Assembly (NCBI GenBank): GCA_963977005.1
Contig: CAXBMQ010000004.1
Location: forward strand, 32,034 to 96,033
Direction: 5' to 3'
Length of the DNA: 64,000 nt
Source: an uncultured Rhodospirillaceae bacterium
GTDB lineage: Bacteria > Pseudomonadota > Alphaproteobacteria > MPNO01 > UBA830
Under the pieces are notes generated by a model. That model was given only the letters and a program-made list of their open reading frames with translations, did not search any database and was not told where the DNA came from. Positions 20,001-23,690 of this stretch are shown one piece after another. Numbering within the stretch: the stretch's first letter is position 1; each line of letters begins with the position of its first letter. The position numbers and the translations under genes are program-made.

Positions 20001-23000
20001 GGTGCACTCGATGACACTGTTTATGCGTACCGTAAGGCTCGTCTGTACCGCCTGGACGCCGACGGTTCGACCTCGGTTCATTCGACTGACCACATCGTAT
20101 TCGCAAGCGGATCGTTCGCGACATTTACAACCGCTTCGGAAGCATCGGTGGAAACCGACGAAGCAACACCGCTTTCCATTGACTCGATTACCGTGGCCGA
20201 TGCTGACGGTGATCCGCTGTCGCTCCGTCTGTCGGCCGCCAACGGCACGTTGGCACTTGCTTCTACGGCCGGCCTGACCTTCACCGATGCGGACGGGTCG
20301 GACGGCACGCTCGCGTTCTCCGGCACGCTTGCCGATCTGAATGCCGCATTCGAGGGTGGTCTGACCTACACGCCGGATGAGTTGTTCTACGGTTCGGATA
20401 CGCTCAGCATTACCGCCGATGACGGGGCCGGTGGCGAGACCACCGAAGCCCTTGATATCACGGTGAACGACGTCAACGAGGCGCCGACCGGCCTGCTCGG
20501 CGCGGATACGCTCAGTGTCTCGGAGAATGCCGGCATCGGAACGGTCCTCGGGACCTATTTCGCCGTCGGCGACCCGGACCAGAACGATCCGCCGGTCTAT
20601 TCTCTGGTTGACGATGCGGGCGGCCTGTTCGCCATCGACGCGGCGACCGGTGCTGTAAGCGTCGCCGGAACGCTCGATTTTGAGAGCGTGCCGAGCCATT
20701 CGATAACCGTTCGCGCGACCGATCGCGGCGGGCTGTATGTCGACCGTGTGGTGTCGGTCGGTGTGACCGACGTCAACGAGGCGCCGGAGGTTTCGGACCA
20801 GGACCTGATCCTCGCCCAGGGCGCGGTCGCCAGCTGGTTTGTCGATGCAACCGACCCGGAAGGGGATATGTTCACCTTCCGGCTGGGTCAGGTGGCGGCG
20901 AACGGCACCGTGTCGGTCGCGGTTGACGGCAGCTATACGTACGAGGCCAATACCGGCTATGTCGGCGCCGACAGTTTCTCCGTCCTGGTGACGGATTCGA
21001 ACGGTGCGACGGCCTCATCCACCGTTTCACTTACTATTCAGGGTGTCGCGCAGTTGGGCGCGGAGGGGCCGGTAATTCCTGATTTTCTTATCCCTGAAGG
21101 TTCTTTGCTGGTTGACTGGCCGATTGGCTGGAACCCGGCGTTATCTGTGATCGACCCTGAGTTATCGCTGATCGACTATGGCGGGTCGGCCGGCCCTCTG
21201 CTGATCAATCCTGACCCATCTCCGATACAGGGCGGCGCCCTGGATTTGGATGATGCGCGGATCGCTGAACTGGTGGCCCAGTTTCAGTCGGGCACCCTGT
21301 TTTTACCCGGCGCTGACCCGTCGGCGCCAGCAACCCTCGATGTGCCGCCGGGCCTGCTCGGAACCACCGGTGACGACATCATGTTCTCGTCTGCCAATGG
21401 CGAGACGGTGCACGGCCTTGCCGGTGATGACGTCCTGTTGGGACTTGCCGGGGACGACACGCTGAATGGCGGGGACGGCGCCGACGTTCTGACCGGCGGC
21501 GGGGGAAACGACGTGCTGACCGGCGGCGCCGGCGATGACCGCTACGAATTCCTGCGTGGCGACGGCGCGGATATCATCGACAATGCCGGCGAATCCGCGT
21601 CGGGCGACGTGCTGGTTTTCCTCAATTCGGTCGACAGCGACCAGCTCTGGTTTGCCCGCTCCGGCGACGATCTTGTCGTATCGGTCATCGGTACGACGGA
21701 TTCGGTAGCGATGCGGGACTGGTATGCCGGGTCCGATAACCGGCTCGATATCGAGACCGGCGACGGCTTGCGTCTCGCCGCGGGCGACGTGCAATCGCTT
21801 GTCGATGCGATGGCCTTGCTCGCAGCGCCCACGCTTGGCGAGACCGAATTGCCGGCAGCACAGGCGGCAGCACTTGCGGGTGTTCTGGCAGCGGTGTGGC
21901 TCCCCGGCGGAACCTTGGAAATCGACAACGACGGCGACGATACTCTCTCCGGCGATGTGTCCGATGACGTGATCACCGGCGGCGGCGGCAGCGACATGCT
22001 GGACGGCGGTGCGGGCGATGACTGGCTGTTCGGCGACCGGGGCGTTCGAAACCGGCCGGCCGGTGCGCTGGCGGCGCTGCAAAGCAGCGACCTTGCGGAT
22101 GACATCAACCCGTTATCGCGGCGGTATACGCCGGGCGGGGCCGATCAGCTTTTCGGCCGAGACGGCGCAGACGTTCTGACCGGCGGCGAGGGTGGCGATT
22201 TTCTAGACGGGGGCGACGGGTTCGATATCGCGAGCTATGCCGATGCGGATGGCGGCGTGACTGCCAGTCTCGCCGATCGGACGCGAAATTCCGGATATGC
22301 CGCGGGCGACATATATGTCGATGTCGAGGGGCTGCAGGGGTCCGGGTTCGGCGATGATCTGACCGGAGATACAGGCGACAATGCGCTGGACGGCGGCGGC
22401 GGAGACGACTGGCTTTACGGCGGTCTCGGTTCGGACAGTCTTGCCGGCGGCGCCGGGGCGGATCACCTTGTCGGGCAGGGTGGTGCGGACATTCTCGATG
22501 GCGGCGAGGGCATCGACTATGCGTATTATTTCATGTCGGCTGCAGGGCTGACGGCGGATCTCAACTATCAGGGCCGCAATACGGGGGATGCGGCGGGAGA
22601 CACGTATATCGGCATCGAGAACCTGAGCGGGACGTATTACGACGATGTCCTGCACGGCGACGCGGGGGCGAACCTGATCCAGGGTCTTGACGGCGACGAC
22701 ACCGTGTCGGGCGACGGGGGCGACGACACGCTGTTCGGCCATGACGGCGCCGATACCATGAGCGGCGGCGACGGCGACGACCTGGTACTTGGCGGTGACG
22801 GCAATGACACGCTGTTCGGCGGTGTGGGCAATGACGGTCTTTACGGGGATGACGGCATCGACTGGCTCTATGGCGGTGCCGATGACGACGGTCTGTATGC
22901 CGGCGCCGGGGACGACTATCTGATCGGCGAAGGCGGCGGCGACCGGCTGGATGGCGGGGCCGGTATCGATACGGCGCTTTATTTCTTCTCCACGTCCGGG

Positions 23001-23690
23001 GTAACGGCACAGCTGTGGAACGCGTCGTTCAACACGGGGGATGCGGCGGGGGACATTTATGTCGGCATCGAGAACCTGAGCGGGACGTATTACGACGATG
23101 TCCTGCACGGCGACGCGGGGGCGAACCTGATCCAGGGTCTCGACGGCGACGACACCGTGTCGGGCGACGGGGGCGACGATACGCTGTTCGGCCATGACGG
23201 TGCCGATGCCATGAGCGGCGGCGACGGCGACGACACGATTTACGCCGGTGCGGGCAATGACGATCTATCGGGCGGCGACGGTAACGATACGCTGTTCGGC
23301 GACGCGGGCGACGATACCTATGCCTTCGGCCGCGGGGACGGCGCCGATATGGTCGTGAACCATGGTGAGACCGCGTCGGACGATCAGGTAGTTTTCGGCG
23401 CGACGATCGATCATGAGCAGCTCTGGTTCGCACGGTTGGGCGACGACCTGTCCGTCTCGGTGATCGGTACGACCGACAGCGTCACCGTGGACGACTGGTA
23501 TGTCGGGTCCGCCAATCAGCTCGATTTTGCCACGGCAGGAGGACTGTCCCTTGCCGATGCGAGCGTCCAGGCGCTGGTCGACGCCATGGCCGGTTTCTCT
23601 CCGCCGGCACTTGGCGAAACCGATCTCAACCCCGCTGCGTCCTATTATGATTCGGTCAGCGCGGCGATTGCGGGCAGCTGGCAACCCTGA
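14037..23690 (+). CDS. Giant (3,217 aa) type I-secreted RTX protein with subtilase, cadherin-like, propeller, VCBS-like and RTX domains
   Basis: GTG start (alternative ATG at 14067); no signal peptide. Domains in order: I9-like propeptide; S8 subtilase triad D177 (VIDSG), H237 (HGTHVAG), S397 (GTSMAAPH); cadherin-like modules ending in VNEAPT; two ELxRxxxDG/LYF propeller blocks; LamG-like and VCBS-like segments; GGxGxD nonapeptide RTX arrays; two LWFxRxGDDL...WY C-terminal-type modules. Confidence 0.9.
22581..22781 (+). repeat. Copy 1 of a 201-bp intragenic direct repeat (RTX block)
   Basis: Matches 23034..23234 with 8 mismatches by hand alignment. The offset is 453 bp, exactly 151 codons. 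Confidence 0.9.
23034..23234 (+). repeat. Copy 2 of a 201-bp intragenic direct repeat (RTX block)
   Basis: See copy 1. Encodes [63 protein letters not shown]. Confidence 0.9.

Follow-up and report, generated by a model that had tools for sequence, protein, structure and literature searches.

A lysine-free tail in a giant RTX protein encoded beside an HlyC-type acyltransferase in an uncultured alphaproteobacterium

A stretch of 64,000 nt from contig CAXBMQ010000004.1 of an uncultured Rhodospirillaceae bacterium (the whole of it hereafter called the window) encodes a giant acidic protein of 3,217 aa whose last 1,217 residues contain no lysine, despite an adjacent gene for a lysine acyltransferase of the HlyC family of toxin-activating acyltransferases (TAATs). 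Comparison with relatives of the giant showed that lysine avoidance is a class-wide trait of acidic cadherin/Big_9/VCBS/RTX giants of type I secretion systems (T1SSs), and that it is not specific to the acyltransferase. What is rare is to find a TAAT paired with a substrate that lacks lysine near its RTX block, each of the two elements being ordinary on its own. The explanation that we regard as probable is a joint one, namely that selection acting on the whole class makes the tail lysine-free, and that the TAAT would lipidate the giant at a lysine somewhere in residues 1-2000. The features on which the analysis rests are as follows.

9546..11789, + strand: HlyB-type ABC transporter for type I secretion, with a C39-like domain at its N-terminus (Pfam Peptidase_C39, ABC_membrane and ABC_tran; NCBIfam TIGR01846 type_I_sec_HlyB, 1098 bits against a cutoff of 726)
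11805..13202, + strand: HlyD-family membrane fusion protein of the T1SS (Pfam HlyD_3; NCBIfam TIGR01843 type_I_hlyD, 415 bits against a cutoff of 209)
13227..13799, + strand: HlyC/TAAT-family lysine acyltransferase, 190 aa (PF02794)
14037..23690, + strand: giant acidic protein, predicted T1SS substrate, 3,217 aa (Pfam and NCBIfam domains, composition)
14541..15326, + strand: Peptidase_S8 domain of the giant, residues 169-430 (PF00082, E 1.8e-61)
16014..20156, + strand: propeller/LamG-like/VCBS/propeller block, residues 660-2040, holding 12 of the 16 lysines (ELWxxDGT and VCBS domains)
19107..19109, + strand: codon of K1691, candidate acyl acceptor (invariant alignment column)
20034..20036, + strand: codon of K2000, the last lysine of the giant (not conserved: S in P0185, E/S in P0001)
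20037..23687, + strand: lysine-free C-terminal 1,217 residues (recount and composition)
21441..23426, + strand: RTX nonapeptide arrays (13 HemolysinCabind stretches; HCBP_related at residues ~2545-2580 and 3137-3169)
22577-22861 and 23030-23314, + strand: internal 285-nt direct duplication in the RTX region, 85% identical

Lysine content of the giant and its relatives

A recount of the open reading frame (ORF) at 14037..23690 (+) bore out the figures that a preliminary description of this DNA had obtained by hand. There are exactly 16 lysines (residues 155, 268, 393, 514, 725, 812, 825, 970, 1230, 1314, 1406, 1440, 1691, 1812, 1843 and 2000), the last of them is K2000, in the context YAYRKARLY, and the count from residue 2001 to the end is zero. 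The lysine-free stretch spans the Big_9/cadherin/tandem-95 modules, the linker, all HemolysinCabind repeats and both HCBP_related modules. The placing of the RTX start near residue 2440 is also acceptable, the first strict GGxGxD motif lying at 2478 and the Pfam and NCBIfam RTX matches beginning at 2469 and 2442, respectively. Overall, the giant consists of 0.5% Lys, 2.8% Arg and 12.1% Asp, has no Cys, and carries a net charge of about -402 (-15.5 per 100 aa in the lysine-free tail), whereas the other genes of the window encode about 3.5% Lys and 7-8% Arg.

The absence of lysine from the tail is beyond chance. If the 16 lysines were placed uniformly, the probability of finding the last 1,217 residues free would be 4.9e-4, and that of any free run of at least 1,217 residues 0.008. 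The tail codons include no AAA or AAG and 38 AAC or AAT (Asn), against an expectation of about 19.5 lysines from position-specific nucleotide frequencies, while out of frame the trinucleotides AAA and AAG occur 10 and 6 times. Moreover, the tail has kept 26 Arg, a distribution whose probability is 0.003 if the K/(K+R) ratio of residues 1-2000 is applied and 4e-5 under the background ratio of the window. Lysine is thus counter-selected in the tail and not mutationally unavailable, because Asn codons are frequent where Lys codons are nil, the Lys trinucleotides do occur out of frame, and Arg is retained. The orthologous tails are lysine-free too, over 1,569 aa in P0185 (66% identity) and 1,052 aa in P0001.

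Lysine statistics were computed for each of the best 120 relatives of the giant. The 28 of them with at least eight RTX motifs have a median of 0.58% Lys; lysine stays below 1% in 18 of the 28, and runs free of it extend over at least 1,000 aa in 12 and over at least 1,217 aa in 10. Seven loci were inspected for a neighbouring HlyC gene over flanks of +/-10 kb, mostly on metagenome contigs, and none was present within that distance. The corresponding giants are:

P0002: 0.34% Lys, longest lysine-free run 1,945 aa, internal
P0003: 0.21% Lys, longest run 1,292 aa, C-terminal
P0004: 0.62% Lys, longest run 883 aa
P0005: 0.36% Lys, longest run 1,221 aa
P0007: 0.28% Lys, longest run 608 aa
P0008: 0.31% Lys, longest run 1,578 aa, C-terminal
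P0032: 0% Lys, free over all 4,839 aa; no S8 domain

Genes beside these HlyC-less giants encode 2.1-3.2% Lys, which indicates that the depletion is specific to the giant protein, as in the window. Genes for a C39-type ABC transporter and HlyD adjoin the giant in three of the seven loci (L005, L006 and L091). The most extreme case, P0032 (L008 10001-24520, GCA_965188335.1), is a cadherin/Big_9/RTX protein with only 1% Arg; no T1SS or HlyC gene was found within 10 kb of it, and its neighbouring genes encode 3.2% Lys. Relatives without an S8 domain are depleted as well (P0032 0%, P0031 0.12%, P0065 0.15%, P0024 0.34% and P0029 0.39% Lys).

The preliminary description had offered, as one possibility, that the depletion follows merely from the extreme acidity that RTX domains have. 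This is closer to the truth, but it is incomplete, given that Arg is kept while Lys is zero, and that HlyA and a TAAT-linked giant of Roseibium aggregatum carry lysines inside their RTX repeats. The depleted class comes mostly from GC-rich environmental Proteobacteria, and depletion is not universal among RTX proteins. Several points speak against generalizing further. The 120 relatives were chosen by similarity to the giant, so that 'common' holds for the clade of the giant only; a distant HlyC copy is possible beyond the flanks inspected; and both the LapA-like relative P0079 (2.8% Lys) and the Roseibium giant (1.36% Lys, with GGKGDD repeats) escape the depletion. Furthermore, a literature search found no paper describing lysine depletion or a preference for Arg over Lys in RTX or T1SS proteins, and the physical reason for this preference that is proposed below is one that we infer.

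Two side observations concern composition and possible modification partners. A 274-aa DUF2189 integral membrane protein of the window (35842-36666, -) also has 0 Lys, with 5.5% R and 0.7% E, which indicates that lysine-free proteins of ordinary size arise in this genome for unrelated reasons. In four HlyC-less loci, a gene for a class I methyltransferase of ~550 aa lies near the giant S8-RTX gene (L005 21417-23072, L006 20740-22395, L090 25011-26663 and L091 25385-27034), directly downstream of it in three of these, whereas in L091 the ABC and HlyD genes come between. Instead, a methyltransferase of ~335 aa is encoded about 10 kb upstream in the window (2518-3537) and in L002, the window copy with a Trm112p-like domain. 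A methyltransferase is a possible alternative modification partner of the giants.

The acyltransferase and its candidate acceptor

The four genes lie on one strand in the order HlyB-type ABC, HlyD, HlyC/TAAT and giant, with a gap of 237 nt between hlyC and the giant gene in which a terminator scan found no terminator-like site; promoter and terminator scans around the operon gave no informative sites. From its N-terminus the giant reads as a propeptide, Peptidase_S8, two cadherin domains, an ELWxxDGT propeller, Big_9, a LamG-like region and VCBS, followed by a second ELWxxDGT propeller, Big_9/cadherin/tandem-95 modules, two RTX plus HCBP_related units and a C-terminal secretion region. The propeptide-like region before the S8 domain is ~165 aa long. 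The PF00082 match (208 bits) covers profile positions 2-273 of 288 and includes the GTS catalytic Ser motif. The RTX plus HCBP_related unit is present twice, at residues ~2470-2620 and ~3040-3217, and the duplicated units suggest a recent internal expansion of lysine-free modules.

The cadherin, Big_9, Cadherin_4/5, tandem-95 and VCBS extenders together with C-terminal RTX repeats are features of the adhesin type. No family for an N-terminal retention module was returned by Pfam or NCBIfam, Pfam being blank for residues 1-170, where a missed match to a hidden Markov model is still possible. A pore-forming domain was not found either, with no Pfam hit to an RTX N-terminal domain and no significant phmmer match to residues 1-735 of HlyA. 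Only the RTX part of HlyA (713-915) aligns with the giant, at five places in residues 2462-3096, and the NCBIfam RTX_toxin model is matched only over its positions ~737-861 (205 bits against a cutoff of 1000). Judged by its predicted domains, the giant is a secreted protease/adhesin-like protein and not a toxin-type RTX protein.

The adjacent gene had been described as a lysine acyltransferase, and this identification holds, with PF02794 HlyC scoring 127.7 bits, well above its gathering score of 25 (E 3.2e-37); there was no match to an NCBIfam model. The N-terminal residues 1-55 are a disordered extension, and the catalytic core follows at residues ~56-190. By sequence, the protein matches the ApxC structure 4WHN (E 5e-15), with H74 and D148 aligned to H24 and D93 of the ApxC catalytic His/Asp dyad, to which H23 of HlyC and H37/D107 of CdiC correspond; in an alignment of 30 HlyC sequences, D148 is nearly invariant and most rows have kept the His. 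An AlphaFold2 model has a core pLDDT of ~90, and its best Foldseek matches are chains A-C of 4WHN (E 1.8e-12, root-mean-square deviation 1.7-2.0 Å), followed by GNAT-like domains at E values of at least 3.6e-3. The gene order ABC, HlyD, HlyC and giant S8 protein is kept in L001, L002, L003 and L004. HlyC orthologues are 88% and 80% identical, with a core that is ~95% identical and almost invariant, and the ratio of non-synonymous to synonymous substitution rates (dN/dS) against the orthologues in L001 and L002 is 0.11-0.12 at dS 0.6-0.8. The acyltransferase thus looks functional, being intact and under purifying selection, and lysine acylation is its predicted activity. Its nearest species-level homologues are 53% identical and come from Rhodospirillales metagenome-assembled genomes (MAGs). 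In L001, an ORF of 121 aa without a Pfam match lies between hlyC and the giant gene (3730-4095), and P0001 begins at the S8 domain; this ORF is probably not a separate gene, the likely cause being an assembly frameshift that split off the propeptide.

In HlyA and CyaA the acylated lysines lie in the segment directly N-terminal of the RTX block (PMC10392135). The preliminary description had stated this correctly, and in the HlyA sequence we verified SGK564 and VGK690 ahead of a first RTX motif at 742. We therefore compared RTX proteins linked to TAAT genes, using one genome per species scanned with the alignment of HlyC homologues (~30 RTX proteins), and recorded for each how far upstream of the first RTX block the nearest lysine lies and how many lysines there are from the block onward. 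The distance is 6 residues in HlyA and typically tens of residues in the set (around 45 aa, as estimated by eye). Outside the clade of the window giant, all of these proteins have lysines in the RTX region, and L015 alone approaches the clade in distance, with 391 aa. The clade itself gives:

Window giant: nearest lysine 477 aa ahead of the first RTX block, 0 lysines from the block onward
P0185 (66%-identical orthologue fragment): nearest lysine 678 aa upstream, 0 from the block onward
P0001: nearest lysine 154 aa upstream, 0 from the block onward

The giant has no segment with a (Gly-)Lys beside its RTX block and no homology to the acylated segment of HlyA. Because a canonical RTX-adjacent site does not exist, the acceptor, if the giant is acylated, should be among the 16 lysines of residues 1-2000. 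K268 and K393 lie within the S8 domain and K155 at its N-terminal edge, all three conserved and in subtilase motifs. As sites linked to the TAAT they were rejected, since they are also Lys in several HlyC-less relatives and hence not diagnostic (at the position of K393, P0002, P0003 and P0005 have L or M, and P0007 and P0008 have K). The block of residues 660-2040 is common only to the HlyC-linked orthologues, tblastn on the fetched loci matching L001-L004 only, apart from a weak cadherin-type match in L008; the specificity for HlyC-linked loci extends over residues 660-2120. Within the block, K1691 stands out as the one lysine beyond the S8 domain that every available orthologue has kept. It sits in blade one of the second ELWxxDGT propeller and aligns with K43 of P0185, where the context is G-K, as well as with K1751 and K2363 of P0001.

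K1691 is accordingly put forward as the best candidate acceptor, on modest to weak evidence from alignment. Several observations weigh on the other side. Gly-Lys is the motif of K564 and K690 in HlyA (PMC8510554), and the only two lysines of the giant that follow Gly, K812 and K825, were discarded as sites, being A and S in the 60%-identical HlyC-linked protein of L003. The motif position of K1691 is generically R or K (14 R, 1 S and 1 K in the 16 blades of the window giant), P0001 uses Lys at this position in several blades, and P0185 comes without genomic context. The acylation of the giant as such is putative.

The preliminary description had listed three possibilities for the pairing, of which the acylation of lysines far away, in a propeller, the LamG-like region or VCBS, seems to us the most plausible role of the acyltransferase. 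The arguments for it, all indirect, are the conserved synteny, the purifying selection, the precedent of CdiC (see the final section) and the conservation of K1691. A second possibility, that the acyltransferase leaves the giant unmodified and has its true substrate encoded elsewhere, or has another role, with an adjacency that is historical, is less probable but deserves consideration. The giant has neither the homology nor the conserved Gly-Lys expected of a HlyA-like substrate. Moreover, many alphaproteobacterial HlyC homologues (those of L009, L011, L014, L020, L022, L029 and L032) have no RTX-motif ORF in flanks of +/-10 kb, and the nearest species-level homologues (51-53% identity) are among them, so that some TAATs may act on other targets. 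The nearest outgroup HlyC (57% identity), in L092 (906-2823), is followed not by a giant but by a hydrophobic ORF of 146 aa and then a protein of 491 aa with an Ala/Gly-rich hydrophobic N-terminal region, a self-processing module (PF26745 SPM), weak RTX matches and 14 lysines, by its predicted domains a different, small type of substrate. In MARTX systems, rtxC has also been reported to be non-essential (PMC3034196). Against this stand the order of the four genes, kept in at least three diverged loci along with the conserved core of the enzyme (dN/dS ~0.12), the position of hlyC directly upstream of the giant gene, as in hlyCA, in the terminator-free arrangement described above, and the lack of a second RTX ORF in the window, a six-frame GGxGxD scan over the 64 kb having found no RTX ORF or canonical substrate outside the giant.

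The third possibility, that lysine depletion is itself selected against off-target acylation or self-proteolysis, did not survive the comparison with relatives, in which lysine-free tails occur without an acyltransferase and without a protease domain. The preliminary description had itself said that such tails, if they were the norm at loci lacking acyltransferases, would reduce the matter to composition, and the relatives bear this out. For a purge of lysines from the tail specifically to avoid acylation by the adjacent TAAT, an enzyme that in toxins acts beside the RTX block, speaks the finding that, among the ~30 TAAT-linked proteins, only the window giant, P0185 and P0001 have 0 lysines from the first RTX block onward. 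However, the seven HlyC-less relatives are equally or more lysine-poor (0-0.62%, with runs of 608-4,839 aa), while HlyC-linked proteins, at 0.50% and 0.86%, are no more depleted. Counted from the first RTX motif of the C-terminal half, P0008 has 0 lysines in 1,474 aa, P0003 1 in 2,073 and P0032 0 in 2,148. TAATs are, besides, site-specific and not promiscuous (PMC8953716, PMC8510554). This explanation is thus largely refuted, and we consider it very improbable.

Escape from the S8 protease of the giant itself, or from Lys-directed extracellular proteases, has just as little to commend it. The S8 domain is apparently intact and the giant would be a long-lived extracellular protein, but relatives without S8 (P0032, P0029, P0024, P0031 and P0065) are as depleted or more, at 0-0.39% Lys, and the 26 Arg of the tail mean that trypsin-like cleavage would not be avoided. 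Subtilases are in general not known to be Lys-specific. Finally, a mere by-product of GC-rich mutational bias, of the duplication of lysine-free modules or of chance is the explanation to which we give least credence, since, for all the GC3 of 0.73 (GC content at third codon positions), the 285-nt duplication and the repetitive RTX and cadherin modules, it is refuted by the codon counts given above, neighbouring genes of equal GC content encode ~3.5% Lys, and the orthologous tails are lysine-free across 34-56% amino-acid divergence.

The joint explanation that we prefer would work as follows. Acidic Ca2+-binding T1SS giants would be kept unfolded and strongly negative in the low-Ca2+ cytoplasm and would fold on meeting Ca2+ outside, and the few basic positions that such proteins tolerate would be taken by Arg. 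The TAAT would most probably still lipidate the giant, using acyl-ACP (acyl carrier protein), on one of the 16 lysines of residues 1-2000. Because T1SS export runs C-terminus first, this half would be exported last, and an acyl chain on it may help the protease/propeller half to stick to a membrane or other lipid surface, by analogy with CdiC/CdiA. In a bolder and rather speculative form, which we think may well be wrong, the TAAT would have been recruited to a new class of substrate, lipidating a single propeller lysine (K1691 or another of the 13 outside the S8 core) and so anchoring the last-exported half to the outer membrane of the producer or to the surface of a target. Were this true, the known kinds of TAAT substrate, RTX cytolysins and CdiA, would be joined by a third, with a scarcity of lysine so extreme that the acylation site should be unusually easy to map.

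Taken alone, the lysine-free tail is a compositional curiosity that is common in its class, and it counsels caution toward adaptive readings. The interest of the locus lies in a functional-looking TAAT beside a non-toxin giant protease that has no canonical acceptor and only 16 lysines. If acylation occurs, TAAT biology would reach past cytolysins and CdiA and extend to environmental, probably marine, Alphaproteobacteria, and the giant would offer a nearly background-free natural substrate for studying lysine recognition by TAATs, which has been described as poorly understood (PMC8510554). The class-wide purge of Lys but not of Arg from Ca2+-binding T1SS giants may in turn point to a constraint of export or of Ca2+-dependent folding.

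Neighbouring genes

Directly after the stop codon of the giant gene begins a gene for an amino-acid permease (23691-25079, +; AA_permease_2, E 3e-43; TTG start as listed), and over 24-26 kb of the window the GC content is lower (0.57). Further downstream, 27102-34762 holds a cluster for a cbb3-type cytochrome oxidase, with fixN/O/P, fixG and a fixI-like P-type ATPase, and a molybdo-enzyme of the xanthine dehydrogenase type lies upstream of the operon at 5689-9444, in synteny with L002, which shares these genes. The cbb3 cluster and the molybdo-enzyme suggest that the locus is in a chromosomal housekeeping context and is not an obvious mobile island. Further away, a 1,002-aa ORF (46523-49531, -) matches PF03098, animal haem peroxidase (E 1e-68), a family uncommon in bacteria.

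Comparison with known systems

Like the hlyCABD and cyaCABDE operons, the locus has a TAAT gene immediately upstream of the gene for a T1SS substrate with C-terminal RTX repeats, together with an HlyB-type ABC transporter bearing a C39-like domain and an HlyD protein, although the order is B-D-C-A and not C-A-B-D. The TAAT shares the His/Asp dyad and the ApxC-like fold of HlyC, CyaC and ApxC. The substrate, however, is unlike the RTX cytolysins, being built of subtilase, cadherin, propeller and VCBS parts, without a hydrophobic pore-forming domain or an acylated segment. Whereas HlyA contains 7.9% Lys, some of it in the RTX repeats, and has G-K564 and G-K690 beside the RTX block, the window giant has no lysine within 477 aa upstream of that block and none downstream.

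MARTX loci (rtxHCA/rtxBDE, with the RtxC of Vibrio) likewise place an HlyC homologue beside a giant multi-domain RTX protein. According to a 2010 review, the acylation sites of MARTX toxins were not defined and rtxC, or acylation, is dispensable in some species (PMC3034196); our own literature search for MARTX acylation sites found nothing specific. The window giant differs in having no match to CPD or to effector domains in Pfam or NCBIfam (N-terminal repeats of the MARTX type were not searched for directly), and the operon has a single ABC gene, with neither rtxH nor a second ATPase (rtxE).

The HlyC-less S8-cadherin-RTX giants P0002-P0009 come from marine or other environmental Alphaproteobacteria (e.g. 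a 'tandem-95 repeat protein' of an alphaproteobacterial MAG) and are 54-77% identical to the window giant over the N-terminal S8 and cadherin part. They resemble it in their extreme lysine depletion, with kilobase-scale lysine-free runs, and in the adjacent T1SS genes of L005, L006 and L091. They differ in having neither a TAAT gene nor the block of residues 660-2040, and often in having the ~550-aa methyltransferase gene adjacent. On plasmid NZ_CP045630 of Roseibium aggregatum, a TAAT gene (54% identity) does lie upstream of a T1SS ABC gene and of the gene for a 'calcium-binding protein' of 4,414 aa; unlike the window giant, this protein carries 60 lysines throughout, including the GGKGDD RTX repeats, and no S8 domain was noted in it.

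The best functional analogy is provided by CdiC and class IV CdiA (Halvorsen et al. 2021, PMC8510554), in which a TAAT also acts on a giant surface protein that is not a cytolysin. CdiC acylates Lys1467 of the CdiA receptor-binding domain with 3-hydroxydecanoate, thereby raising the binding of CdiA to the outer membrane of target cells (PMC8510554). That is, the site is a single lysine far from any RTX block, in a context unrelated to the HlyA and CyaA sites (PMC8510554). CdiA differs from the window giant in its type V (two-partner) export, its FHA repeats and its lack of RTX, and its acylated lysine correlates strictly with the presence of cdiC, whereas no such clean correlation was found for the window giant. 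The CdiC system is nonetheless the precedent for the kind of lipidation proposed here.

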